A stretch of 64,000 nt of DNA from an uncultured delta proteobacterium (GTDB lineage Bacteria; Desulfobacterota; Desulfobacteria; Desulfobacterales; JAHEIW01), in assembly GCA_963706575.1 (NCBI GenBank), contig CAVPNL010000001.1, positions 128,001 through 192,000 of the forward strand. Reading direction: 5' to 3'. Both the position numbers and the translations under genes were made by a program. Shown here piece after piece: positions 44,330-64,000 of the stretch (the stretch's first letter is position 1; each line of letters begins with the position of its first letter). The notes beneath the pieces are model-generated. The model worked only from the letters and a program-made list of their open reading frames with translations. It did not search any database and was not told where the DNA came from.

Positions 44330-44812
44330 AATCCCCTCCTTTACAAACTTTCAAGGTTTATTGTCGATCTTTCAAATGAAAATCAAATAAATAAAACATT
44401 ATTTTTAGATGAGGATTTTTAAATGCGCCAGGATGGAATCATATAACGGCGACATGATTTGATTACAGGACATAGGTGGTGATAATCAAGATTTAAATTA
44501 ATTCGCTTAAGAATAAGCTATGGATACAAAATCTGGGGAAATTGTATCTTCAATTTTCACATTTAAAAAAAAATCAGCTCATCCAAGTTTTAGCTTAGAC
44601 ACGATGTCCAAAATAAACTAAGGCCTCAAAAAGTGTGTATTCGCCATGTCTAATCTGTAAAATCAAGAGTCGTGGTTGAGGCACTTTTCTTAAATCAAAA
44701 TTTTTGAACCTTTTATGCCCTATCATATTTAAAAATTCTTGCGATATAAATTTGAAACATGTAATTTCAAGTGGGTTCGGTCGTTCGGGTTCAAGTCAAA
44801 AGGAGATTTCAT

Positions 44813-45376
44813 ATGACATACGAGGAGATTATCCAGTTTCACGGACATGAATGCCCGGGGCTTGCCATAGGCTACAGAATGGCTACCGCAGCAATGGAAA
44901 ATCTTGAATCTTTTCCTGCTGAAGATGAAGAACTGGTTGCAATAGTGGAGAATGATGCTTGCGGGGTTGACGCCTTACAGTGTGTTACTGGCTGCACCTT
45001 CGGTAAGGGAAATTTGCAGTTCCGTGATTACGGGAAGCACGTTTATACCATATATTCCCGATCGTCACGATCAGGTGTTCGTGTGCATTTTCATGGGAAT
45101 GATATTCCAGAAAGCTTACGCGAAGATCGAAAAGCCCTTAGCGATTGGATCCTATCTGCATCCAACGACAGTATCCTTTCTGTGACCCAAACTTCCATTC
45201 CCGAACCTGAATCTGCAAAAATCCGCGAGTCAATACCATGTGCGTTTTGCGGTGAGAACGTCATGGAATCCCGCATTCAGCAATTGCGTAAAAAGCCAGC
45301 TTGCATTCCATGTTACGAGAAGCTACGGAAGTTCAACCAAAACGATGAGGCAGGGATCGACAATTCGCGCCTTTGA
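44813..45376 (+). CDS. FmdE family protein with C-terminal zinc finger
   Basis: FHGHECPGLAIG, CGVDALQCVTGCTFGKGN and CAFCGE..CIPC motifs. Confidence 0.92.
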   Translation: MTYEEIIQFHGHECPGLAIGYRMATAAMENLESFPAEDEELVAIVENDACGVDALQCVTGCTFGKGNLQFRDYGKHVYTIYSRSSRSGVRVHFHGNDIPESLREDRKALSDWILSASNDSILSVTQTSIPEPESAKIRESIPCAFCGENVMESRIQQLRKKPACIPCYEKLRKFNQNDEAGIDNSRL

Positions 45377-45530
45377 TATCTGGGTTTTAATGCACAATCA
45401 TGATATCTGCAATATTGATAAACCTGTAATACTCTCAATATATCAAAAATTGAACTGTTTTGGAATTTCTGACAGTATGATTAAATTTATCAAACTCGAA
45501 TGAAAGTTCATCAATAAATGGAGGAAATAC

Positions 45531-45956
45531 ATGAAAAAATTATTTCGGTACAGAAAATCTGTTGGCTTAATCATGTTAATTTCAACATTTATGCTATACT
45601 TCTCGCCATCCCCTGCGCGGGCCGTTATGATAAATACTCGGTACGTAATTCATCAGGATTCTGAACAGCTTTATGCCAGGGCGAAAGTAAAAGCCTTTCT
45701 TTTAAGGGCGGATGTGATGGCACAAATGCAGACTTATGGAATTAATCCCACGGAAGCGCTATCCCGAGTTGATAGCCTGACAGATTGCGAAATTGCATCA
45801 ATAGCAGGCAAGATGGATCAGATACCAGCAGGAGCTGGAGACAATTATACAATGGATGGTCGCTTGTTAATGTTTATTGGCATGGCCATTTATGCAATCA
45901 TAGCTGCGATCGTAATATATTTTTCGTCTAACTCCGACAAGGAAGAGAAACCATAA
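45531..45956 (+). CDS. PA2779-like secreted/membrane protein
   Basis: Signal ending ARA; R.DV..Q....GI.P.EA..RVDSLTD.E..PAGA; C-terminal TM helix. Confidence 0.75.
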   Translation: MKKLFRYRKSVGLIMLISTFMLYFSPSPARAVMINTRYVIHQDSEQLYARAKVKAFLLRADVMAQMQTYGINPTEALSRVDSLTDCEIASIAGKMDQIPAGAGDNYTMDGRLLMFIGMAIYAIIAAIVIYFSSNSDKEEKP

Positions 45957-46089
45957 TCAAGGCTTTTGGATGCCGATAACGTCGTCATAATTGTTGGAAG
46001 TAAAGAATGATACTTTCCTGAGAAAAAATGAATGGGTGCATTTATTTAATTTCTAAGCCCGGAATTTTATATCATCAAATGCGGATATG

Positions 46090-46125
46090 ATATCACAAGT
46101 TGCCCGATTTAGTGATATTCTCAAT
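46090..46125 (+). repeat. 36-bp intergenic motif, copy 1
   Basis: ATATCACAAGTTGCCCGATTTAGTGATATTCTCAAT. Confidence 0.8.
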
Positions 46126-46240
46126 GTATCACCATGTGATTGTAGCGAGCTCGCCAGTGATTAAATAATTTGATACAAGCATAAATGTCGTATCACCATC
46201 ATTATTGGGTGGTATAACACCTGAAAAAAGGAGGTGTAAC

Positions 46241-46405
46241 ATGCCCACATATGAGTTTTACTGTGAAAAATGTAAAAAATCCTTTAGCATAGTCCTTTCT
46301 ATTTCCGAATATGAAAAGAAAAAATACAGTTGCCCAAAGTGTAAAGCCAAAAAATTGAAGCAACAAATTTCATCCTTTCAGACGGTAACTTCAAAAAAAA
46401 GTTAA
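46241..46405 (+). CDS. FmdB family zinc-ribbon protein, copy 1
   Basis: MPTYEFYCEKC..CPKC; AGGAGG RBS. Confidence 0.9.
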   Translation: MPTYEFYCEKCKKSFSIVLSISEYEKKKYSCPKCKAKKLKQQISSFQTVTSKKS

Positions 46406-46441
46406 CTATTATTGAGATACTGTTCTCAGAAAATGGGGATA

Positions 46442-46477
46442 ATATCACAAGTTCCTTGTTTTGGTGATACTCTCAAT
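46442..46477 (+). repeat. 36-bp intergenic motif, copy 2
   Basis: ATATCACAAGTTCCTTGTTTTGGTGATACTCTCAAT. Confidence 0.8.
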
Positions 46478-46539
46478 ATATCTCTAATTTGCGATATTGG
46501 GAATTTTAGATTTCACCCTATGCATTTCAGTCGAATAAA

Positions 46540-46983
46540 ATGATGGTAAAAAAAACACTATATAGAATACTTATATTCGATGATTCAGAAGAAATTCGAT
46601 CTTTATTATATGATTTTTTCAATAAAAGAGGATATGAGGTTTTTTCTTTCCCTAATCCCGCCGTTTGCCCAATATCTCACGAAAAAATATGTCCCTGTCC
46701 AACTGGAGTAGCTTGTTCTGATTTTATTTTATCGGACTTAAACATGCCAGTTCAACAAGGTATAGATTTCTTAGAAGGGCAAATACGTAAAGGTTGTCAG
46801 TGTAAAAATATGATTTTGATGTCTGGAGATTTTACTGAAAACGATATTGTACGAGCAAGATCTATTGGATTGATGCTTTTAAGAAAGCCTTTTGGTATTA
46901 CAGAAATTTTAGAATGGATAGAAAGCATAGAAAAAACTATTGACCCTGATAGAAAATTATCAGATTGGTTTCTTAAAAAATGA
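46540..46983 (+). CDS. Single-domain response regulator with a Cys-rich insert
   Basis: ILIFDD, SDLNMP..G, MSG and KPF motifs. Confidence 0.85.
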   Translation: MMVKKTLYRILIFDDSEEIRSLLYDFFNKRGYEVFSFPNPAVCPISHEKICPCPTGVACSDFILSDLNMPVQQGIDFLEGQIRKGCQCKNMILMSGDFTENDIVRARSIGLMLLRKPFGITEILEWIESIEKTIDPDRKLSDWFLKK

Positions 46984-47232
46984 GTATGATATCCCAAGCT
47001 ACGATGTTTCTTTGATCAATGTATCACCAGTTTCGAGAATGCCTAATTTTGATTAAATAAGCCCATCCATTTGGGTATAAATGCGTATAAAATATTCCTG
47101 TTTTTTTAACCTAACGAACTGCTTCTTACATGGAATCAAATGCTCCTTCTTTTCTGATTCTTACGTTTTATCAATAAAATTTTATCCTGAGTTCAAAAGC
47201 ATGAAACCTTTTGAAATGAGGAGGGCTAAAAA

Positions 47233-48003
47233 ATGGTAAAGTGGAAATATTTTAAACCAATCCTTTTTTTATTATTTTGTTTTGCTTTTTCATTCGCTCT
47301 ATTTGTTGTTGAGGGAGTAGCCGAAGAAACTGTTAATATAACGACTGATGATGGTCAAAAGCTCAAGAGCACATACTTTGCACCATCGACTCCAAATGCA
47401 CCGGGTGTCATTTTATTACCTGACACAAGATGTGATAGAATGAATTTCGGCTCAATCCCAAGAAAACTTAATGAAGCTGGTTTTGCTGTTTTGGCATTGG
47501 ATCTCAGGTACAAAGATATTATCGCTAAGGCAGGAAGTCGAAAGAAACAAATTAGCACAATCCAGAAGCAGGATTTAATGGCTCTTGTAAAATACGATAC
47601 AAAAAGCGCTATTAATCTCTTAACCGGCAAAAAGCAAGTAGATCCAGAACGTATTGCTCTAATCGGTACAAGTCTTGGGTCGAGAGTGGCTATAATAGCC
47701 GGAGTTGAATACGACTTAAAAGCATTGGTATTAATTTCACTTTCTGGAGAAGTTGCATTTCCGGATTATAAGCCTATCAAAGAGCTTTTGTCAGATTATG
47801 GAGAGAAACCAATTCTTTTCATGACAGCAGAAAAAGATTGGGGTGGAAACGGAAAAGCTGCTGAACACAATAAGCTATATTACGAATGGAAAAATGGAAA
47901 AAAAGAATTAAAGATTTGGTCAGGATCTGGACATGGAGTTGAAATTCTTAAAAAAAATGAATCTATTAACTTCGTAATTTCATGGCTAAAAAATAATCTC
48001 TAA
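47233..48003 (+). CDS. Secreted alpha/beta hydrolase
   Basis: Signal peptide; GTSLG nucleophile motif, AEKD and GHG. Confidence 0.85.
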   Translation: MVKWKYFKPILFLLFCFAFSFALFVVEGVAEETVNITTDDGQKLKSTYFAPSTPNAPGVILLPDTRCDRMNFGSIPRKLNEAGFAVLALDLRYKDIIAKAGSRKKQISTIQKQDLMALVKYDTKSAINLLTGKKQVDPERIALIGTSLGSRVAIIAGVEYDLKALVLISLSGEVAFPDYKPIKELLSDYGEKPILFMTAEKDWGGNGKAAEHNKLYYEWKNGKKELKIWSGSGHGVEILKKNESINFVISWLKNNL

Positions 48004-48111
48004 AAATTGACTCAAATAAATGCCGGTAAAAAAACGTATCAGAAGTTTCTTTGCGTTTTTAAAATCTGCGATATCTCCGACAAAGTACAAATATCAGGTT
48101 GCTAAATTTTT

Positions 48112-48415
48112 TGTGATATTCGATTTTAATCACAACTCAGAAGGGTGAATCTGGGCCGATAGATTTGCCCTTTTTATTGCCTCAAAGCCGCATTTTTCGG
48201 GCCTATGATTTGACAGTAGATTTTAAAATGCGATACGGTGCAGATATCCATATCGTACCTGAAAAATTGCGATATTTGGGTTTCTCTCAATATACATGTA
48301 GTTTTGACGAAGCTGTATTTTGGCAAAATAATTTGAGTTTTTAGAGAATTTAAATTTTTGTGATTACATCTACATATCCTTAGTTTGGGGATATTTGTGA
48401 TATTTTAGGATATCA
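48112..48415 (+). repeat. ~300-bp non-coding direct repeat, copy A
   Basis: Colinear with 54603-54905; roughly 85-90% identical by eye. Confidence 0.9.
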
Positions 48416-48532
48416 AAAGTTTTTGGGAAATTAGAAGTTCACAAATATTGTGTTATATAGAATCTACGATATTGAATATCATAGATTATACCTAATACAT
48501 GTTCGACAAACAAAAATAATTGGAGAGTAACA

Positions 48533-49021
48533 ATGGCAAAAAATATTTCTTTTGGACATTTACTTATTTTATTATGCATTTTTTTTGTTTCGCCCCTTTC
48601 ATTATATGCTGCTGAGAAAAATATTGAATTATCGAAAGGCCAGAGTATTTATGTACCTGCCTATTCACATATATACAGCGGTAATCGGGAAAGTCCCTTC
48701 TTATTGACGGTGACATTGAGCATCAGAAACATTGATCCGAAGCATCAAATCAAAATCACCTTGGTCGATTATTACGAAACACAAGGTAAACTATTAAAAA
48801 AACATATAGATAAGCCAGTAACATTAAACCCATTAGAATCTTTACGCTATGTGATACCAGAAAGAGACAAAAGTGGGGGATCAGGCGCCAATTTTATCGT
48901 TGAATGGCAATCCGATAAATTTGTTAATCCACCCATTGTTGAATCAATAATGATTGGTACGCAAGCGCAACAAGGGATTTCTTTTACCTCTCGTGGTAAA
49001 GAAATTTATACCACTGAATAA
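48533..49021 (+). CDS. DUF3124 family protein (integron-type cassette gene)
   Basis: YVPAYSHIY, TLSIRN and GGSGANFIVEW motifs; bounded by GTTCGAC at 48501 and an attC. Confidence 0.88.
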   Translation: MAKNISFGHLLILLCIFFVSPLSLYAAEKNIELSKGQSIYVPAYSHIYSGNRESPFLLTVTLSIRNIDPKHQIKITLVDYYETQGKLLKKHIDKPVTLNPLESLRYVIPERDKSGGSGANFIVEWQSDKFVNPPIVESIMIGTQAQQGISFTSRGKEIYTTE

Positions 49022-49029
49022 TGATGGGT

Positions 49030-49091
49030 GTCGAACAAGGCTTTTGCAGCGGAGCGCCAAAAGCCGCGCCCGCTGAAAAGCAACGTTAATC
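49030..49091 (+). mobile_element. Integron attC site
   Basis: R'' GTCGAAC; L'' arm CTTTTGCAGCGG pairs with CCGCTGAAAAG leaving one extrahelical base; R' GTTAATC; R'' is complementary to GTTCGAC at the cassette start. Confidence 0.82.
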
Positions 49092-49571
49092 AAGATACCT
49101 TCAACATACGCAAGCTGTGGGTGAACCTTTGATATCTCTTATAGTATCTGTAAAAAAATTGTCACCGTAATAGGACAGATACTGTAAACGTATCAAAGGG
49201 CAAACTCCTTTTGAACTATCTGCAAAAATCATATGAATAAACGCTTTACAAAACCGTTGATATCTCCAACTAATCGGCAAAATTGATGGCTTTAAAAAAA
49301 CTGTGATATCATATGAGGATATCTGTAATTTCGGTGAAATTCAGATTATTTCAATGTATCAGTACTTTCAAGAACTCCCAATAATGGTTGACCAAATCCC
49401 ATTGATTTGGGTATAAACACATCTAATGAATCTCTGATTTTCCTATTCCAACTGACCTGTAGCGGTTCTCTATTTTCAGAATCGAATCCTCTTCCTGAAC
49501 TGGCTTTTACACTCCTCCTAAAGTCCACATAATGAGTTTATCTGTTTGAACCCGATAAAAGGAGGTGTAAC

Positions 49572-49736
49572 ATGCCCACATATGAATTTTACTGTGAAAA
49601 ATGCAAAAATTCTTTTAGTATTGTCCTTTCTTTTTCAGAATATGAAAAGAAAAAATACAGATGCCCAAAGTGTAAAGCCAAAAAATTGAAACAACAAATT
49701 TCATCCTTTCAGACGGTAACTTCAAAAAAAAGTTAA
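49572..49736 (+). CDS. FmdB family zinc-ribbon protein, copy 2 (absent from the ORF track)
   Basis: MPTYEFYCEKCKNSFSIVLSFSEYEKKKYRCPKC..; near-identical to 46241-46405, same RBS. Confidence 0.9.
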   Translation: MPTYEFYCEKCKNSFSIVLSFSEYEKKKYRCPKCKAKKLKQQISSFQTVTSKKS

Positions 49737-49772
49737 CAGTAATTGAGATACTGTTCACGGAAACTGGTATTA

Positions 49773-49808
49773 ATATCACAAGTTTCCAGTTTTGGTGATA
49801 TTCTCAAT
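49773..49808 (+). repeat. 36-bp intergenic motif, copy 3
   Basis: ATATCACAAGTTTCCAGTTTTGGTGATATTCTCAAT. Confidence 0.8.
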
Positions 49809-49912
49809 CGTTAACTGGCTGATATTTGGTTTTCTTTTAGACTATCACCACCAGCCGGAACCTTAAATTAGAAATATCTTGTACATCATTAAATATGAAA
49901 GGAGTAAAAACG

Positions 49913-50620
49913 ATGAGTGAAGTCACGCAACTGGATAAAACTTTCCACATCATCATGAAGCGTATGGTGGAGACGGGGCAGGCACCGTACTATACGGAAA
50001 TAGCAAAAGAACTCGGTGTGTCAATGGAGGAGGGGAGAAAGGCGTTGCATGATCTTTTCTCTGCCAGAATTTACGGATGGCTGTATCCCAATACGGATTT
50101 CATTACATCTTTCGCACCGTTCAACAATTTGCCTACTCAATTTCGGATTACCATCGATGGTGAGCAAAAGTGGTTTGGCCAGTGAGCGTTTGAGTCGCTG
50201 GCAGTCTGCTGGCTTTTTCCGGGAAAAGTGGTTCAAATCGACACACCGTGTCTGGACTGCGGTGAACCCATGCAGATTCAAATCAAAGACGGCGAGCTGC
50301 TCAAGGTTGATCCGCAAGGCCTGATCTCATACGTTGCCGTTCCACTGAAGGAGTGGTTCCGCGATGAGGCCTATTCCTGAGCGACCATGACATTCTTCCG
50401 GTCGGAAGAGCATCTGCACAACTGGGCCCAATTTGATCCTGCAACAGAGGAAGGAATCATCCCGCTAAATGATCTGATCAAACTCTTTTCGGGCAGAATA
50501 ACCCGTCGGCGCTTGGATCCTGACTATTTTTCACACATGCGCGAATATGTCGCTGATTTTATGGTAACTCTTCAGGAAATTGGTAAGACAGGACCGTTCT
50601 GGTCGATAGAGCGCTCCTAA
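49913..50620 (+). CDS. MerB (organomercurial lyase)-like protein with two predicted selenocysteines, 235 aa
   Basis: Single frame interrupted only by TGA at 50183 (WFGQ-U-AFESL) and 50378 (EAYS-U-ATMTFFRS); HTH-like N-terminus, APF..PT, and PCLDCGEP; a SECIS-like hairpin follows each TGA. Confidence 0.85.
50197..50213 (+). promoter_or_regulatory. Candidate bacterial SECIS for UGA 50183
   Basis: GCUGGCA-GUC-UGCUGGC stem (with G-U pairs) starting 11 nt after the UGA; G in the apical loop. Confidence 0.6.
50394..50409 (+). promoter_or_regulatory. Candidate bacterial SECIS for UGA 50378
   Basis: UCUUCC-GGUC-GGAAGA hairpin; loop starts 20 nt after the UGA. Confidence 0.7.
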
Positions 50621-50747
50621 TTAGCACCCAATTTAGGTCGACTGAATCCGGTTAGGATATTAGATGCGGGGTCAGTCTGAAAAACTGTGATACAGCTTCA
50701 ACTAATCAAAGATTTTTGAGGCCATTAAAATGTTGTGATATTTTGGT

Positions 50748-50783
50748 ATATCACAAGTTTCCTGGTTTGGTGATACTCTCAAT
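50748..50783 (+). repeat. 36-bp intergenic motif, copy 4
   Basis: ATATCACAAGTTTCCTGGTTTGGTGATACTCTCAAT. Confidence 0.8.
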
Positions 50784-50906
50784 AAATCACAGGTCGATGC
50801 CAACGTTGGATACTGGCAAAAATAGTAGGTTTGAACTTGTGAAGCTCGGCCCAAAGGCAACAGTTTCTCTTTCGGTTGTGACAGGAAATAAAGGATAGAA
50901 GCAAAA

Positions 50907-52139
50907 ATGATCGGACAGACAACACGATGGCTCGGCTGCATATACCTGATGTTGTTCTGGATCGGAGCTTGTTCAACCCTGCACCCTGGCTTGGACGATC
51001 AAGGTCTGCCTCAAACCAAGTATATCTACAAGGTGCCCGTGGAAACAGATGACGGATGGGAGACCTCTTCTCTTAATGATGCAGGGATTGATCCGAGAAA
51101 AATCACTGAACTGATGCAGAATATCCTTACTCTGCGGTTTGCAAATGTCCACGGAGTATTGTTGGTTCGCAATGGAAAATTGGTTTTGGAGGAGTACTTT
51201 AACGGATACACATTCAACTTCTCAGGCCCAGGATTCAGGGGTGAACCTGTCGCCTATGGGCGGGACCAACTTCATGTTACGGCTTCAGTCACCAAAAGTG
51301 TCACTTCGGCCCTGTTGGGAATTGCCATCGACCAAGGTTTCATAAGTGATGTGGATGAGAGAATGGCTGCCTTCTTCCCACAATACTCAGATAGAATAGA
51401 TGAAAAAAAATCCAGAATTACCCTGGAGCACTTGCTTACCATGACCTCAGGTCTCGAATGGAACGAAATTGGGCGTTGGTTCAGAGATCCCGAGTTTGAT
51501 CTGGTCAGGCTGTTTGTTGAGCCGGATCCAATCGAATATGTCTTGTCGAAAGATGTTGTTCATGAACCGGGTACATACTGGTATTATAATGGTGGGGGCG
51601 TGAACCTGCTGGGTGAAGTTGTCCGGAAAGCATCAGGACTAAGGATCGACGCTTTTGCTGAGCACTATCTCATGGCGCCCCTTGGGATCAGAAAATATGA
51701 GTGGGACCACATCAATACTGAGATCATTCATGCCTCAGGAAACTTGAAACTCTGCCCAAGGGACATGGCGAAATTCGGGCAATTGTTTCTGAATGGGGGA
51801 ACATGGAAGAATCGCCGGATTATTTCCGAAGCCTGGGTAACCAAATCCACTAAACCGATTATCTCAATTCCTTTGAACTCCTTGAAAAAGGTCATTGCCA
51901 AGGAGTACCTGGCTTGGACGGAAACAATGGGAGATCGCTATGGATATCTGTGGTGGGTGAAGACCTTTTGCGCAGACTTCGGGTGTGCGGAATCCTACTT
52001 AGCTGACGGTTGGGGCGGACAGAAAATTGTCATATTTCCAAGTCTAAATCTCGTAGTCGTATTTACAGGCGGGAACTATGCCACAGCTGAACCGGTTCAT
52101 GAGATGATTTCCCAATATATCCTTCCTGCGGTTCAATAG
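50907..52139 (+). CDS. Serine hydrolase (class C beta-lactamase/NylB-like) lipoprotein
   Basis: Lipobox IGAC; ASVTKS, HLLTMTSGL, YYN and YGYLWW..GWGGQ motifs. Confidence 0.88.
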   Translation: MIGQTTRWLGCIYLMLFWIGACSTLHPGLDDQGLPQTKYIYKVPVETDDGWETSSLNDAGIDPRKITELMQNILTLRFANVHGVLLVRNGKLVLEEYFNGYTFNFSGPGFRGEPVAYGRDQLHVTASVTKSVTSALLGIAIDQGFISDVDERMAAFFPQYSDRIDEKKSRITLEHLLTMTSGLEWNEIGRWFRDPEFDLVRLFVEPDPIEYVLSKDVVHEPGTYWYYNGGGVNLLGEVVRKASGLRIDAFAEHYLMAPLGIRKYEWDHINTEIIHASGNLKLCPRDMAKFGQLFLNGGTWKNRRIISEAWVTKSTKPIISIPLNSLKKVIAKEYLAWTETMGDRYGYLWWVKTFCADFGCAESYLADGWGGQKIVIFPSLNLVVVFTGGNYATAEPVHEMISQYILPAVQ

Positions 52140-52204
52140 TACCCAAAAAGCAATTTTGGGATTTCCCTTTATGCTCTTTAAAAAAAAATTAGGGAGAATA
52201 AGCT

Positions 52205-52567
52205 ATGGAGAAGCCCAGTTTGAGCATTCAAATCGCAGTTAGCTCGTTGGCGGGGCTGATTTTACTTAAAGCCGTATTGTTGGGTTCTCTTTGGGCCCAA
52301 GTCCAACCTCATCCCCCAGCAAGAGTGGGTCCCTTTATTGCAGCGAGCCTTAGCTTGACCGTTGTATCTATTCCACTCGTTTGGTGGCGCAATAAGATAG
52401 GATACACCACCTCGATAATAGTAGGATTACTTGGTCTAATATCATTTGGTCCTCATAAATTTTTTAGCGAATCAGCAGGCCAGATATTTCCAGCTATTAT
52501 AGTAGGCACAGTTCTTTCCGTAGTTTTGATAATCTCCTCTTTAGCGAGTTGGAGAACAAAGAAGTAA
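52205..52567 (+). CDS. Small four-TM membrane protein (probable cassette gene)
   Basis: GGGAG RBS; four hydrophobic segments; followed by an attC-like site. Confidence 0.75.
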   Translation: MEKPSLSIQIAVSSLAGLILLKAVLLGSLWAQVQPHPPARVGPFIAASLSLTVVSIPLVWWRNKIGYTTSIIVGLLGLISFGPHKFFSESAGQIFPAIIVGTVLSVVLIISSLASWRTKK

Positions 52568-52612
52568 AATAAAATTACCTTATTAATTTTCTCTAATAAT
52601 CTATATTTAAAA

Positions 52613-52717
52613 GCATAACAACCAGCTGAAGCTGACAGGAAATAACCTCGTTGTTTTCGTTAAAGGTCGTGCAAGCTTCACATGCACTGGGCATGCAGCT
52701 TAGCCGTGACGTTTCCA
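52613..52717 (+). mobile_element. Integron attC-like site
   Basis: R'' GCATAAC; L'' GCTGAAGCTG pairs with CAGCTTAGC; ends GAC-GTT; TTATGCT at 52169 is complementary to R''. Confidence 0.65.
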
Positions 52718-52733
52718 ACCTGTGATACCTCCA

Positions 52734-54567
52734 GAGACTGTCGAAAAAGGTATCAATTGAAGGTGGTTTTTCTATAAGATCTATAATTTTTTATCCCACT
52801 CAAAGCTCCAAACAATATCCCGCAAATATCGGCTATCCTTGTATTTTTTCGTTTGACAATGTCTAGTCCTATTGCTAGGTATAGATTAGTTTCTGATACA
52901 ACAACCAGGCAAATATGGAGTGGACAAATTAATGGCCAAATTTAAGCGTTATGATTATTCCCAAAAGGTTTTAATCCCGGTTTCATTAGAGGAGCAACTG
53001 GTGCCCGGCAGTTTGGAGTTTGCCATCCATATGCTCATTGAGACGCGCATGGACATGTCGGTATTTGAGGGCAACTACAAAAATGACGAGACAGGCCGCA
53101 GTGCCTATGATCCTAAGATTTTGTTAAAAGTGGTATTGTTGGCTTACGCGCGGGGGCTGATATCCTCGCGGCAAATTGAAAGGGCCTGCTGTGAGAACGT
53201 GACCTTTATGGCGCTGTCTGGCAACCAGCGGCCCGATCACAGTACCATTGCAACTTTTGTATCTTCGATGAAAGATCAGATATTGCCTTTGTTTTGCGAC
53301 ATTTTATTGGTCTGTGAGCAAGAAAACCTATTGGGCGGGACCTTTTTTGCCTTAGACGGGGTAAAGCTACCGGCTAACGCGTCCAAGGAGTGCAGCGGCA
53401 CGATAGCAGAACTAAAAAAGAAAAAGGACAAAATACAACAAAAAGTCAAGCGCCTATTAAAAGATCAGATTGATGCGGATAAAGATGACGATGATGATTT
53501 TCGCACTCCACCCAAAGTCGAGCAGCAAATTGAGAAGCTTAACAAGCAAGCCGATCGCATTGAAAAATGGCTCAAAAAAAATAATGCCAAGATCAGCTCA
53601 AATGGCAGAGAGCTCAAAAGCAATCTAACCGATAATGACTCGGCGTTAATGCTCACCTCCGGCGGCACCATCCAGGGCTACAATGGCCAGGCGCTGGTGG
53701 ATGACAAGCACCAGATTATCGTTCATGGACAAGCCTTTGGCAGCGGACAGGATGCCAAACATCTTGATCCCATGGTTGATGGGGCTAAAGCCAATCTGGA
53801 AAAAATCGGTCAGAGTGCAGATTATTTTAAAGGCAAGATTTTAACTGCTGATACCAATTACCATAATCAAAGCAATTTAAAAAAGTGCCACGATGAACAG
53901 CTTGATGCATATATACCGGATTTAAAATTTCGCAACCGCGATTCACGATTTGCTACCCGGCCAAGGAATAAACCCAAGAAGGGTAAAAAATTTGTATTAG
54001 AAGATTTTAAGCACAACAAAGCTGCCGATCACTATATTTGTCCCAATGGTAAGGTGCTCAAGCTAAACGTAAAGCGCCACACCACAGATCACAATATCTA
54101 CCGCCGCTATATGGCCGATGAAGCCGATTGCAGCCGCTGTTCATTAACGCATCGATGTTTTTATCGCAAAAATACAAAACGTCGTTCACTGGATGTTCCC
54201 ATCGGTGCAGCAAACACCAATTTTTCCAAAGCCATGCAGCACAAAGTTGATAGTGAGAAGGGACGCAAAATATATCCACAGCGCTTTGCCATTGTGGAGC
54301 CGGTTTTTGCCAATATTAAAACCCAAAAGCGCTTGAATCGATTTACGCTAAGAGGCAAGGTCAAAGCTAACATCCAATGGATGCTCTATTGCATGGTGCA
54401 TAATATCGAAAAGATCATGAACTTTGCCACGGCATAAGCGGGATTATCAGCTCCAGGGCATACAAGCGGCATAATAAAACTTACCAGCAGCCCAAAATAC
54501 GACTTTAGAAATGTTTGAAGTTTGGCGCAACAGATGGATGTTTAAAAACAACTTATTCAACAACTTC
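52734..54567 (+). mobile_element. IS1182-family insertion sequence
   Basis: Imperfect terminal IRs GAGACTGTCGAAAAAG / CTTATTCAACAACTTC; flanking CCA direct repeat. Confidence 0.75.
52932..54437 (+). CDS. IS1182 family transposase
   Basis: GRSAYDPKILLK..SSRQIERAC, PDHSTIATF, LDGVK..ANAS, GYNGQ, ADTNY and VEPVFANIK motifs. Confidence 0.93.
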   Translation: MAKFKRYDYSQKVLIPVSLEEQLVPGSLEFAIHMLIETRMDMSVFEGNYKNDETGRSAYDPKILLKVVLLAYARGLISSRQIERACCENVTFMALSGNQRPDHSTIATFVSSMKDQILPLFCDILLVCEQENLLGGTFFALDGVKLPANASKECSGTIAELKKKKDKIQQKVKRLLKDQIDADKDDDDDFRTPPKVEQQIEKLNKQADRIEKWLKKNNAKISSNGRELKSNLTDNDSALMLTSGGTIQGYNGQALVDDKHQIIVHGQAFGSGQDAKHLDPMVDGAKANLEKIGQSADYFKGKILTADTNYHNQSNLKKCHDEQLDAYIPDLKFRNRDSRFATRPRNKPKKGKKFVLEDFKHNKAADHYICPNGKVLKLNVKRHTTDHNIYRRYMADEADCSRCSLTHRCFYRKNTKRRSLDVPIGAANTNFSKAMQHKVDSEKGRKIYPQRFAIVEPVFANIKTQKRLNRFTLRGKVKANIQWMLYCMVHNIEKIMNFATA

Positions 54568-54602
54568 CCAACATATCCACACTTTTGGTAGCCTGAAAAA
54601 CC

Positions 54603-54905
54603 TGTGATACTCGATTTTAATCACAACTCAGAAGGGTGAATCTGAACCTATAGATTTGCCCTTTTTATTGTCTCAAAGTCCCATTTTTCGGGCATGCAAT
54701 TTGACACCCGATTTAAAAATACGATACGGTGCAGATATCCATATCGTATCTGTAAAATTGCGATATTTGTGTTTCTCTCAATATACATGTAGTTTTGGCG
54801 AAGCCGTATTCTGACAAAATAATTTGAGTTTTCGAGAATTTAAATTTTTGTGATTACATCTACGTATCTGCAGTTTGAGGTAATTTGTGATATTTTTTGA
54901 TATCA
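54603..54905 (+). repeat. ~300-bp non-coding direct repeat, copy B
   Basis: Colinear with 48112-48415. Confidence 0.9.
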
Positions 54906-55126
54906 CAGGTCATGAAAAGCATAGTTTTCTGTCTATTATCTCAATAAAGACCAGTCCAGTGATATTTGGTTTTCTGGTATGGTATCCAAACCTGGATTAA
55001 CCTGTCTTGTTGGGTACAGGACTGCATATAATTTCTTTATCGATATCTATGTTATCAAACTATGGCATTGCACCTTTTCGGCTTTTAGCTGTTCAACACT
55101 TCATTCCAACCAAGATGTAGGGTGTT

Positions 55127-55714
55127 ATGAAAAAAAGCGTCGTATTATTAATCACCTTGTTGGTTTTAACGTTTGTGAGTTGTGCTTTGTCGAACAAATA
55201 TATGACCAAGGCAACGCCTCCAGAAGGCCCGACACCTGGTAAGGCATTGGTATTTTTCATGCAACCAAACTATCCCGGCTCTCTTTTCCTCCAATTTAAG
55301 ATTTGGGAAGAATATAAATTAATCGGAATTAGCCGGTTCAAAAGATACTTCTCCTTTGAGTGTGATCCGGGTAAACATTATTTCATATGCATTACACGAT
55401 ACCCACATACGGTGGTGGCTGATCTTGCGGCTAACAAAACGTACTTCATTTTAATTCAGTTAATGTTGGATCCCTGGCCCGGGCATCATAGCATGCAGTT
55501 TATCCCTGTGAAACGCGGGTCTGGATACTGGGATAAAGTTGATAGATACAAACAAAAACTCAAGTATGAAGTGTTTCAACAGGTCGCGGCAAACGAATTG
55601 GAAAGCGAAAGTCGAGAAGAAATAATAACAGAACTCCATGAATTTATCAGCTATGTCAAAACTCCTGAAGGTCAGAGCCGCCAAGAGAGGCTGGAAAAAG
55701 AAGATGGACGTTAG
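55127..55714 (+). CDS. Hypothetical lipoprotein
   Basis: Lipobox FVSC; GKALVFF..CDPGKHYF..LAANKTY. Confidence 0.75.
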   Translation: MKKSVVLLITLLVLTFVSCALSNKYMTKATPPEGPTPGKALVFFMQPNYPGSLFLQFKIWEEYKLIGISRFKRYFSFECDPGKHYFICITRYPHTVVADLAANKTYFILIQLMLDPWPGHHSMQFIPVKRGSGYWDKVDRYKQKLKYEVFQQVAANELESESREEIITELHEFISYVKTPEGQSRQERLEKEDGR

Positions 55715-55883
55715 GATTGATAATAAACGATCCTTCATGCTAGACGGCCAGCATCATTGTTACCGTACCTGTTTTAAGGTGAAACATCAAAATTGTTATT
55801 TAATTTTAAAAAGTGTTGATGTCTCGAACCGATTAAAAATTTGCTAACCACCGAGGTCTTGTATATTTCTGCAATAAACGGAT

Positions 55884-56243
55884 GCTTTGAAAAGTGACGA
55901 TACTGCAGCTAATCGCAGATGAGCCGAAATCGCGATATCTATGATGATATCTGCAAAAAAATGTTCACTAAAAAAGCACTAATACTGTAAACTGATCACA
56001 TGAGAATCATCTTTTAGGTTTATGCCGTTTGGTGGTAAATAAAACTGCCTTTCAAAAGTTGTGTTCACTCCAACTAATCGCAACTGAGCCTAAATTGCAG
56101 ATATCAACTATAAAAACCAAGTATCTTGCATCCTCGTATTCTGAGATACTGTAAACTAATCACAAAAGAGCCATCTTTTAGACCCCTACGATTTATTGGT
56201 AATAAAATTAGCTTTCCAAAAGCTGCGATTACTCCAACATATC
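55884..56243 (+). repeat. Degenerate tandem repeat, period about 164 bp, about 2.2 copies
   Basis: TACTGTAAACT.ATCACA..CATCTTTTAG at 55983 and 56147; CT(G/C)CA.CTAATCGCA..TGAGCC at about 55903 and 56068. Confidence 0.7.
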
Positions 56244-56608
56244 TAAGGTTTTGAATCATCAAAATTCTTGCGATATTCATTTTATATCACAGGTGCAATA
56301 ATCCGCTAATTCCGTTTCTTTTAAAGATTTCATATTATTGGATAGAATCCACACTTCGGCTGAAGTTTAGATGGCGACTATGAATTGAACATCGAAATAA
56401 TTTGTACCTTCCATCAACACACCTAATGAATTTTAACCCTTTCTATATCTTAAAATCGGAACGCATCCTACAACTAGATATCTTGCAAAATAGTGAAAAT
56501 TTGCTTACATTATAGAGTCGGACGTTTCGCGAACAATGGCAAGCGTGCAGCTATGAAGCAGCTTATGTATTGTATCCTAAACAGAATACTTTAGCGTAGG
56601 AGTTAATT

Positions 56609-61218: not shown

Positions 61219-62310
61219 CTACGGTTCGCAGGTTACGTGGCAAATACCGGTCGGCGAATCAACGACATATGGAAAATATTTGCGCTTAAACCAGAGCGCC
61301 ACGTTTACCAGACTGATGAGCACCGGCACTTCCACCAGCGGGCCGATGACCGCTGCAAATGCCTGCCCCGAGTCAATCCCGAAAACCGCTACGGCCACCG
61401 CAATCGCCAATTCAAAATTGTTTGAAGCAGCTGTAAAACTCAAGGTGGTGGACTGTTCATATGTCGCCCCAACTTTCATGGATAAAACAAATGAAACAAA
61501 AAACATAATCACAAAATAGATGCACAGCGGGATGGCGATGCGGACTACATCGAAGGGCAGCTGAACAATATATTCACCCTTTAAAGAGAACATCACCACA
61601 ATGGTGAACAGCAATGCTATCAATGTGATCGGGCTTATTTTCGGGATAAATTTGTTCTCATACCATTCGATGCCCTTTGTTTTCAGCCCGATGATGCGGC
61701 TGATGATCCCGCCAATAAACGGGATACCCAGATAAATGAAGACACTTTCGGCGATCTGGCCGATGGAAATATCGACGACCGCTCCTTTAAGACCGATCCA
61801 TTGCGGCACCACCGTGATAAAGATATAGGCATAAACCGAAAAAAACAGAACCTGGAAAATCGAATTAAAGGCCACCAGTCCGGCACAGTACTCGCGATCT
61901 CCTGCAGCCAGATCATTCCAGACGATCACCATGGCGATGCAGCGCGCCAGGCCGATCAGAATCAGTCCCACCATGTATTCATGCTGGCCGGATAAAAATG
62001 TGATTGCCAGAAGAAACATTAAAATGGGGCCGATGACCCAGTTTTGCACCAATGACAGCAATAACACTTTTACGTTGCGAAACACCTGTCCGAGCTGTTC
62101 GTACTTAACCTTGGCCAGTGGCGGGTACATCATCAGGATCAAGCCGATGGCAATCGGAATATTGGTTGTCCCCACCTGGAAGGTGTTGATTATCTGACGA
62201 ATGTCCGGATAAAAATAGCCGCCGCCGACGCCGACAAACATGGCCAGAAATATCCACAGGGTTAAGAAGCGATCCAGAAATGAAAGCTTTTTTGCGGTTG
62301 AATCGGTCAT
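61219..62310 (-). CDS. acr3: ACR3 family arsenite efflux transporter
   Basis: [42 protein letters not shown] and GPLVEVP motifs. Confidence 0.96.
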
Positions 62311-62341
62311 CAGAACATCTCCGTTGCTACATTTTTTACAT

Positions 62342-62854
62342 TTATTGATACTTTGCGGCGGCTGCGCTTAACAGCGCCTTGAGCTGTGGTTTTTTGGGCA
62401 TCGAGCCGATTGCCTTGACCTCGCCGTTGATGATTAGGGCAGGGGTGCCCGTTATCCCGTAATTTCCGATTTCGGCGGGATCGGTTACATGCTCGATATC
62501 GGCTACAAGATCCATTTCAGTCATCACCGTCATCAGGTCTTGTTCCACATCGTCACAACAGGGACAACCGCTGCCCAGAACCTTAATTTCCAGACCTTCC
62601 AGCTTGCTCCGTTCATAAGGCTTCCCGACAAATTTTTTATATTCCCGTAAAAAAGCCTGTTCGTAATCTGTCCGGCTATTTTCAGGTATGTAATTTAATC
62701 TGGACAACCGCCGAATCAGCTCATCGCTGACCTCATCATCCGATCTAGCGGCAAGCTCTCGGGAAACTTCCTCCAGAACATGCTTTAATCCAATAATGCC
62801 CATGCGGTGACGTCCAACTTTTATCTGGTTGACTTCATCTTTTTTCATGATCAT
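62342..62854 (-). CDS. Small redox-active thioredoxin-like protein with an N-terminal extension
   Basis: [11 protein letters not shown] and [11 protein letters not shown] motifs; ars cluster context. Confidence 0.85.
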
Positions 62855-62955
62855 TCGACTTTCTGTTCAGCGGTGGATTATTCCCGGGCGCGATCTTCTT
62901 ATATTTCCGGTTAAACAGTCATTTGGGGAAATCCCCGCGCGCCAGGATCGATCGA

Positions 62956-64000
62956 TCAGGCAAAAAAGCGGCCAAAGATCATGCCGCTGATTGTGGCCAT
63001 TACGACCACCAGGCTAACAAAGGCGATGGTTTTTGTTGTCCCTAAAACACTTCTAATGACGATCATATTCGGCAGGCTGAGGGCGGGACCCGCCAGTAAC
63101 AGGGCCAAAGCCGGCCCCTTGCCCATACCGGCGCCAAGAAGACCCTGTAGAATCGGGATCTCCGTCAATGTGGCAAAGTACATAAATGCACCGGCTACGG
63201 ATGCAAACAGGTTGGCCCACAGCGAGTTGCCTCCCACCAGGCTGTTGACCCAATGAGATGAAATGAGGCCCTGCGATCCGGGTCGTCCGAACAGCAAACC
63301 TGCGGCCAAAACACCGGCAAACAGCAGCGGCATGATCTGTTTGGCAAAGTCCCAGGTTGCAAGAAACCAGTTTTCGGTTTCACCTCTGGTAGAGGTAAGC
63401 AGCACCACCAGCGCGATGATCCCACCAGCAAAGGCGATGAGCGGTTCATGAGGAAAGAGCAGTGCCAGGACCAAAACCGCTGCAACCGCTATGATTAATT
63501 TATACGCTTTAACCTTGAACCAGGTAACAAGCATTATCGCCAGAAGCGTCGCAAAACCCCCGGTTATCAGCCACTTGATGTTGTAAATGCTATGCCAAAG
63601 ACCTGCGGGTTGCACCGGTTTGCCCCAGGTCCCGAAAACAAGGATACCTACCATTGTCGCAAAATAAATAACATTTTGCCACAGGGGTCGCTGCACTTCC
63701 GGCTCGGGCATATAAACAGGGGACTGGGCCTTTGCTTGTTCTTCTTTCCTGAATAAAAGATGCATGAGAAGGCCGATAACGATGCTGAAAACCACCGCCC
63801 CCGCGGCCCTGGCTATTCCGATGGTTACCCCGAGAACGCGGGCGGTAAGCACAATTGCCAGTACATTTACCGCAGGACCGGAGTAGAGAAAAGCGGTCGC
63901 CGGTCCCAATCCGGCCCCTCGCTTCCAGATGCCGGCAAAAAGAGGGAGCACGGTGCAGGAGCAGACTGCTAATATGGTGCCGGAAACCGAGGCCACCCCG
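62956..64000 (-). CDS. ArsP/DUF318 family permease; 5' end outside the window
   Basis: VCSCTVLP, FLYSGPAVN, MYFATLTEIP and AGPALSLP motifs. Confidence 0.9.
   Translation of the reverse strand, partial: GVASVSGTILAVCSCTVLPLFAGIWKRGAGLGPATAFLYSGPAVNVLAIVLTARVLGVTIGIARAAGAVVFSIVIGLLMHLLFRKEEQAKAQSPVYMPEPEVQRPLWQNVIYFATMVGILVFGTWGKPVQPAGLWHSIYNIKWLITGGFATLLAIMLVTWFKVKAYKLIIAVAAVLVLALLFPHEPLIAFAGGIIALVVLLTSTRGETENWFLATWDFAKQIMPLLFAGVLAAGLLFGRPGSQGLISSHWVNSLVGGNSLWANLFASVAGAFMYFATLTEIPILQGLLGAGMGKGPALALLLAGPALSLPNMIVIRSVLGTTKTIAFVSLVVVMATISGMIFGRFFA

Follow-up and report, generated by a model that had tools for sequence, protein, structure and literature searches.

The window analysed here, a 64,000-nucleotide stretch of DNA from an uncultured delta proteobacterium (contig CAVPNL010000001.1, positions 128,001 to 192,000), almost certainly contains a real and intact gene for a MerB-family selenoprotein with two selenocysteine (Sec) residues. 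The gene occupies 49913-50620 on the plus strand and consists of a single frame of 235 codons followed by a TAA stop (50618-50620). Its only internal breaks are two TGA codons, at 50183-50185 (codon 91) and 50378-50380 (codon 156), which we translate as Sec. Comparison between species indicates that both internal UGAs are read as Sec by the SelB/tRNA-Sec system, each by means of its own downstream hairpin of the GGUC type, a predicted selenocysteine insertion sequence (SECIS). The two Sec residues align with Cys96 and Cys159 of MerB. The frame, the score with the Pfam MerB model and the predicted fold show that 49913-50620 is one gene of an expressed type, encoding a cytosolic 235-residue protein of MerB fold. 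We hypothesize, by analogy with MerB, that this protein cleaves carbon-metal bonds.

Two in-frame UGA codons predicted to encode selenocysteine

Open reading frame (ORF) calling with translation table 11 splits the gene into 49895-50185 and 50387-50620. An earlier note, made from the letters of the window, had proposed that one hidden 235-residue frame runs through both ORFs; translation reproduced the frame and the TGA positions, and the peptide strings WFGQ-U-AFESL, PCLDCGEP and EAYS-U-ATMTFFRSEEH are exact. The ATG at 49913 is the likely start, in preference to 49895, because a presumed Shine-Dalgarno-like AGGAG (49900-49904) precedes it by 8 nt and the homologs have their first Met aligned with this codon. 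The same fragmentation is found in public protein libraries. A search of 1.84 billion protein cluster representatives gave 853 matches at an expect value (E-value) of at most 0.001, and among the best 150 of these, 32 stop exactly at query residue 90 and 9 have residue 159 as their first. This is a systematic annotation error, by which the double-Sec protein enters the libraries in pieces of about 90, 64 and 77 residues.

Separate ORFs from standard ORF calling and libraries that hold mostly fragments are also what would be found if the TGAs were true stops, in a dead gene or between three small unrelated ORFs, or assembly errors for TGC or TGT. Moreover, one relative is truly decayed: in the copy of genome G325 (L067, G325:C14:3956-4854, minus strand) a TAA interrupts the frame early, at the codon that aligns with Gln23, Glu94 is replaced by Gln and Sec156 by Val, and the TGA at site 1 is kept. 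We nevertheless give this explanation practically no credence, and it appears to be contradicted already by the comparative data. A search of one genome per species returned 34 related loci, of which 32 were used; two that cover neither site (L049 and L050) were left out. Site 1 is TGA in 30 of the 32 loci and TGC in L042 and L047, and site 2 is TGA in 30 of 31 and TGC in L047, the contig of L046 ending before this site. The two sites are thus TGA in different species, and the exceptions are Cys codons. The double-TGA forms are between 86% and 54% identical to the window protein, and the Cys/Cys form is 35% identical. The conservation of amino acids runs before, between and after both TGAs, which argues against unrelated ORFs.

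The complete Sec machinery is present in the genome, a further point against true stops. All four components score above their curated cut-offs: selA, which shares contig C1 with the MerB-like gene, with 604.8 bits (cut-off, 268); selB with 376.5 bits (cut-off, 242); tRNA-Sec, the product of selC, with 75.2 bits (cut-off, 47); and selD with 380.3 bits (cut-off, 125; G000:C5:349796-350719, L060). The selD gene itself carries an in-frame TGA, and hence SelD is a selenoprotein in this genome. A second selD-like locus, also with one TGA, was seen on contig C3. The assembly comprises 5.67 Mb in 25 contigs and is 91.8% complete with 6.4% contamination. Assembly errors are contradicted by contigs from two independent metagenome runs, which cover 49979-50388 with 3 differences and 49989-50508 with 6 differences, none of them at either TGA. 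A dozen studies have yielded near-identical copies of the gene, in metagenomes of sediment, estuary and marsh. The earlier note had proposed looking for Cys or TGA in orthologs, for selA, selB, selC and selD, and for TGC or TGT in independent sequence data, and on each of these points its expectation of Sec was borne out.

Bacterial SECIS elements of the fdhF type are stem-loops that follow the UGA at a short distance and have G and U in the apical loop. Hairpin 1 (50197-50213) has a 6-bp stem, GCUGGC/GCUGGC, in which 50197-50202 pair with 50208-50213 and two of the pairs are G.U, and a 5-nt loop, AGUCU, which in relatives is GGUCU or GGUCA. Hairpin 2 (50393-50410) reads UUCUUCC-GGUC-GGAAGAG. 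Between the TGA and the first base of the loop there are 17 nt at site 1 and 19 nt at site 2, so that the (A/G)GUC(U/A) and GGUC loops and their distances agree with the fdhF-type definition. The earlier note had drawn a hairpin after each TGA; hairpin 2 stands as drawn, whereas hairpin 1 exists with the 6-bp stem given above and not with the 3-bp GCA/UGC stem of the note. A consensus scan flagged hairpin 1 together with the UUUUU that follows it (Leu-Phe codons; 50197-50222) as terminator-like.

We aligned 66 nt from each TGA, with 31 sequences per site. The stem of hairpin 1 is present in 31/31, and its only two changes convert a G.U wobble into C-G and A-U; likewise, a C>T change at 50209 in one metatranscriptome contig keeps a G.U pair. 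The six inner pairs and the loop of hairpin 2 (UCUUCC-GGUC-GGAAGA) are the same in 31/31, and the outer seventh pair is U-A in 14, C-G in 6, U-G in 5 and broken in 6. Synonymous variation is suppressed just downstream of each TGA. Across these 31 sequences the synonymous entropy of codons 95 to 99 is 0, 0.21, 0.55, 0.21 and 0 bits, compared with a mean of 1.28 over 148 conserved degenerate codons, and it is 0 at each of codons 161 to 165, six-fold degenerate Arg and Ser codons included. On the evidence of the alignments, no other single argument for functional SECIS elements is as strong as this constraint on silent sites 17 and 19 nt after the TGAs, which is difficult to reconcile with true stops or assembly errors.

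Relationship to MerB, SaoL and other double-Sec proteins

The Pfam MerB family model (PF03243) matches residues 72-191 of the window protein with 80.5 bits, well above the gathering cut-off of 27, and the closest PDB sequences found with phmmer are MerB2 (5c17, 3.4e-7) and MerB (1s6l, 5.7e-4). In the alignment to both, U91 corresponds to Cys96, E94 to Asp99, C113 to Cys117 and U156 to Cys159. Glu94 is encoded by GAG at 50192-50194, and Glu is present in 33/33 aligned rows. C113 is part of a C113-L-D-C116 motif (50249-50260), the second Cys of which is without a counterpart in MerB; both cysteines are present in at least 90% of 38 aligned rows. This 38-row alignment (the window protein, 23 loci and 14 Cys-type representatives) was the input for an AlphaFold2 model with a mean predicted local distance difference test score of 95.9 and a predicted template modeling (TM) score of 0.90. 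With the model as the query against the PDB, Foldseek returned 11 matches at an E-value of at most 0.001, all of them MerB or MerB2, the best being 3f0o_B (1e-10; TM score of 0.69 by target length). The MerB-like identity proposed in the earlier note is supported by the Pfam match and by these structural matches, and its assignment of Sec to both catalytic Cys positions and of Glu to that of Asp99 is reproduced by the phmmer alignment.

MerB of plasmid R831b (1S6L, 3F0O and 3F2F) and MerB2 (5C17) share the fold of the window protein, with Foldseek E-values of 1e-10 to 1.5e-7, a probability of 1.0 and target-normalised TM scores of 0.57 to 0.69. They also share the positions of the two metal ligands, of the acid residue and of Cys117. 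They differ in sequence, with only 17 to 20% identity, and have Cys, Cys and Asp where the window protein has Sec, Sec and Glu; the window protein has Cys116 in addition and is extended at its C-terminus by a conserved segment of about 45 residues. Of the canonical signature Cys96/Asp99/Cys117/Cys159, Cys117 alone is literally kept (as Cys113), and the other residues, Sec91, Glu94 and Sec156, are chemically analogous. The protein is not a canonical MerB (organomercurial lyase, EC 4.99.1.2): it scores below the curated cut-offs, lacks the residue signature and lies outside a mer operon context. The N-terminal 70 residues are winged-helix-like, and this region is also aligned within MerB itself. 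We considered a DNA-binding regulatory role for this domain and dropped it without a formal test; the Foldseek matches to LexA, MarR and GntR are weak (E-value of at least 0.28), the region belongs to the MerB alignment, and by eye it has more acidic than basic residues.

The closest described precedent is SaoL (NCBIfam NF040728). It is described as a protein with a single Sec, which forms part of a CU dipeptide at the Cys159/160 site, and as encoded in a nine-gene SAO operon (Haft and Gwadz, bioRxiv 10.1101/2022.07.06.499078). Both proteins belong to PF03243, are found in anaerobes, carry Sec at the Cys159 position, suffer from gene calls truncated at UGA and have a presumed organometallic role. 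However, SaoL has retained Cys96 and Asp99 of MerB, where the window protein has a second Sec and Glu, and at site 2 it has Cys-Sec whereas the window protein has Ser-Sec (Y-S-U-A). The loci described also differ, that of SaoL containing an ABC transporter, SaoE and others, and the window gene having as neighbours genes for FmdE-like, DUF6627, receiver, dienelactone hydrolase, DUF3124, zinc-ribbon and beta-lactamase-fold proteins and an insertion sequence (IS) transposase. We therefore rejected membership in SaoL: the window protein reaches 44.3 bits with the NF040728 model (cut-off, 140), has two Sec residues and no CU dipeptide, and is without SAO neighbours.

A 2021 survey of mer genes by Christakis, Barkay and Boyd picked MerB by the Cys96/Asp99/Cys117/Cys159 signature (PMC8261052). 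The MerB-like variants of that survey are likewise homologs that depart from the signature, often without MerA (PMC8261052). They come from called proteins (99Ser and 117alt), and the text on them mentions no Sec form (PMC8261052). Because such a screen uses called proteins and a cysteine signature, a gene cut at two UGAs could not pass it; surveys of mer genes and ordinary gene calling are blind to a form with both catalytic residues encoded by UGA. In the tables of the selenoproteome reviews of 2022 and 2026, SaoL is the sole MerB-type entry. The earlier note had left it open whether the double-Sec type had been described, and we found no description of a double-Sec MerB relative in the full-text literature searched. 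Beside the SaoL of these tables, our protein adds a family to the prokaryotic selenoproteome.

The genome contains more than one such gene. The Pfam MerB model matches at three places, and in all of them both ligand positions are in-frame TGAs. The second paralog (L063:1369-2076, minus strand, on G000:C18; 59.7 bits) shows 46% identity to the window protein. The CLDC motif recurs in it, both hairpins are nearly unchanged, and its gene lies 36 nt upstream of one for an MFS transporter. The third (L064:1186-1932, plus strand, on G000:C6; 55.9 bits) shows only 24% identity. It has U-x-x-D, with the Asp of true MerB; its Cys motif is CAHC, and its second hairpin contains GGUC. To count the family in the phylum we used a profile of the relatives' alignment (A3) on 401 evenly drawn genomes, with an E-value of at most 1e-10. 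Matches were found in 65 of the 401 genomes, and hence the double-Sec form is not rare in this sample; none came from the 13 sampled genomes of the same order. The 87 matches have two TGAs in 63 cases, one in 8, none in 13 and other combinations in 3. Two cases with an extra stop (G315 and G124) are ordinary double-Sec genes in which that stop falls at the end or close to it. Some 20 double-TGA matches with low scores in the sample resemble the third paralog, and from these matches and the divergence of that paralog we conclude that, as judged by sequence, the double-Sec relatives of MerB form at least two divergent subfamilies.

Forms with Cys are known from the public proteins as well. Proteins of 155 to 159 residues (P0002, P0003 and P0007) have Cys at site 1 and end just before site 2, and the full-length relatives P0004, P0005 and P0010 have Cys at both sites. 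In a tree from a quick search, with midpoint rooting and support from the Shimodaira-Hasegawa-like approximate likelihood ratio test (SH-aLRT), the window gene falls into a group of 23 rows (22 double-Sec and one Cys/Sec; SH-aLRT, 94), with the Cys-type forms outside and the third paralog elsewhere on a long branch.

Proposed function and alternative explanations

We hypothesize that the selenolates of U91 and U156, in place of Cys96 and Cys159, coordinate the metal(loid) in an organometal(loid) compound, and that the most likely substrate would be an organomercurial such as methylmercury. Glu94, in the place of Asp99, which is the proton donor of the lyase reaction in MerB, would protonate the leaving carbon, so that the carbon-metal bond would be cleaved by protonolysis as in MerB. 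The gene would act alone, with no MerA, mer operon or SAO locus. In line with the earlier note, which had seen no merA or merR neighbours, no mercury or mer gene is present among the 16 neighbouring ORFs, and a search of the whole genome for MerA found nothing above the cut-off (best score, 344 bits; cut-off, 454); both features distinguish this genome from the setting of MerB. We regard the case for this explanation as a whole, from double-Sec recoding to a stand-alone lyase, as evenly balanced. A carbon-metal lyase of some kind is our best guess, tentative and a shade short of an even chance, and that mercury is the physiological metal is possible but doubtful.

The residues themselves speak for catalysis. 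The carboxylate three positions after the first Sec or Cys is kept, as Glu in all rows counted above and as Asp in the third paralog and many Cys/Cys relatives, and Sec156 and Glu94 are lost together in the decayed copy of G325. This pattern would fit catalysis better than mere binding.

Several results weigh against the proposal, at each of its levels. Compared with shuffled sequences, neither hairpin region folds unusually well. Site 1 has -8.3 kcal/mol, and 196 of 200 shuffles fold at least as well (z, +1.55); site 2 has -9.7 kcal/mol, and 48 of 200 are at least as good (z, -0.62). Thermodynamics alone does not single out the hairpins, and the case for them rests on the comparison between species. 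An Rfam scan of 49500-51000 at an E-value of at most 1 matched no family, a result that is neutral on the question. Two metatranscriptome libraries have contigs that cover the first TGA (50006-50318) and the region from the second TGA to the stop (50268-50629), but presence in an RNA library is no proof of transcription. The NCBIfam MerB equivalog models failed (NF009710, 42.0 bits versus 193; NF033555, 36.9 versus 200), and the protein departs from MerB in the Glu for Asp, in the extra cysteine of the CxxC motif and in a C-terminal extension outside the Pfam MerB domain. With an assembly that is 92% complete and 6.4% contaminated, the three paralogs may not all come from one cell. Clustering of the ORFs within 3.5 kb at 33 loci revealed no conserved neighbour; the largest cluster, of a generic acyl-CoA dehydrogenase type, is present at 5 of the 33, and there is no mer-type gene. 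Finally, a site with two selenolates is expected to hold Hg(II) extremely tightly, and turnover would be the main difficulty, with product release unexplained in the absence of MerA or a conserved partner. For this last reason a single-turnover trap, or a metal other than mercury, stays a serious possibility.

Taken further, this possibility makes the protein a metal(loid) trap or chaperone and not an enzyme: the selenolates, perhaps with C113 and C116, would bind Hg(II), Cd(II), Cu(I) or As(III) stoichiometrically, or act once, and protect an anaerobe that is devoid of MerA. We think this somewhat unlikely. It would account for the missing MerA and for the lack, at the 33 loci, of a conserved partner to take the metal off; it would give a role to the CxxC pair conserved in the aligned relatives, and three paralogs would raise the binding capacity. 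The mer survey reports that the Hg(II) product stays bound to MerB and that variants of the enzyme bind further metals, for example Cu(II) (PMC8261052). On the other hand, the conserved carboxylate corresponds to the proton donor of the lyase and would be needless for binding alone. Furthermore, Sec is costly and usually kept for catalysis, and a protein that works as a stoichiometric trap should be abundant or inducible, but no metal regulator is encoded among the neighbouring ORFs.

An improbable alternative is a redox enzyme on a MerB scaffold, in which U91 and U156 would cycle between selenol and diselenide or form a selenenylsulfide with C113 or C116, reducing or transferring a small S, Se or As compound with no cleavage of a carbon-metal bond. 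The extra CxxC motif in the same domain and the lack of mercury genes nearby would agree with such a role, and most bacterial selenoproteins in the review tables carry redox-type UxxC or CxxU motifs. However, both Sec residues are exactly at the metal-ligand positions of MerB, in the same fold, and Pfam and Foldseek found no thioredoxin-like fold or motif in the protein. Moreover, C113 aligns with Cys117 of MerB, which is buried and structural according to the mer survey (PMC8261052).

Returning to the proposed lyase, we looked for a pointer to mercury in the co-occurrence with HgcA, using a cap-helix motif pattern of this protein. The pattern matched 111 of the 401 genomes and a control pattern 1 of 401. 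It is present in 30 of the 65 genomes that carry the family and in 81 of the 336 that do not, a comparison uncontrolled for kinship. Within three families compared by eye the link mostly vanishes, which also speaks against mercury (carriers versus non-carriers: f41, 6/10 versus 1/3; f47, 4/8 versus 1/5; f54, 3/6 versus 2/2). We take the co-occurrence as a weak hint. The genome itself has two exact matches to the back-translated motif (G000:C6:512822-512845 and G000:C24:16118-16141, both on the minus strand), and the organism may be a mercury methylator, to judge from this motif.

Whatever its function, the window protein is a rare case of a bacterial enzyme that has Sec as both catalytic ligands, as aligned with MerB, each with its own SECIS. 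If it cleaves organometal(loid)s, it would be a concrete candidate for demethylation in anoxic habitats without a mer operon, and the cycles of selenium and mercury would be tied at one active site. No enzyme other than MerB is known to cleave the carbon-mercury bond in methylmercury. A bolder and rather unlikely extension is that the double-Sec family is a mer-independent methylmercury-degrading enzyme of anoxic sediments, a selenium-dependent carbon-mercury lyase of sulfate reducers, syntrophs and other anaerobes, many of which are also mercury methylators. The antagonism between selenium and mercury is well known; if the extension were true, this antagonism and the net production of methylmercury in sediments would depend in part on a selenoenzyme missed by every gene catalogue. 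The divergent double-Sec subfamilies in single genomes, with three copies here, would then form a small toolkit for different organometal(loid)s.

The genomic island around the gene

The gene lies within a 12-kb stretch of low G+C content (44330-56600; 39%, versus 50% in the flanks). The genes of this island are small, unrelated and all on the plus strand; they encode FmdE-like, DUF6627, receiver-domain, dienelactone hydrolase, DUF3124, MerB-like and beta-lactamase-fold proteins, a small membrane protein, an IS transposase (52920-54437) and an unknown protein, and they are separated by long, repeat-rich spacers. The patchy distribution of the family, the base composition and the IS suggest that the MerB-like gene was acquired horizontally.

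A direct repeat of 259 nt, 90% identical between its copies (46219-46477 and 49550-49808), carries a 54-residue zinc-ribbon ORF (PF09723; 46241-46405 and 49572-49736). The first copy precedes the receiver-domain gene and the second is just upstream of the MerB-like gene; at the 33 loci of other species, the zinc-ribbon ORF is not a conserved neighbour. The motif GTGATAYTCTCAAT has 19 copies in the genome, compared with none for the reversed control. Five are in the island, starting at 45426, 46112, 46464, 49795 and 50770, usually 70-130 nt upstream of a start codon, and 14 are elsewhere in the genome. Palindromes of the form TGTGATAT-N6-ATATCACA are found near copies of this motif at 48396, 50734 and 54886. 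Such short elements are joined to many different flanks in the metagenome contigs and may be promoters or operators, or copies of a dispersed repeat.

A one-strand array of small unrelated genes with intergenic repeats resembles an integron cassette array, a reading that found no support. The best match to an integron integrase in the genome has 85.2 bits (cut-off, 265), and the attC core, which we assume to follow the pattern RYYYAAC...GTTRRRY, is present in 0 of 11 intergenic regions. A more fitting description of the island is a variable region of low G+C content that carries an IS and dispersed repeats. About 10 kb downstream, on the minus strand (61219-63996), lie genes for an SBF-family transporter (PF01758, 208 bits), a thioredoxin-like protein (PF13192) and a multi-pass permease, a trio that presumably resembles accessory genes of arsenic resistance.

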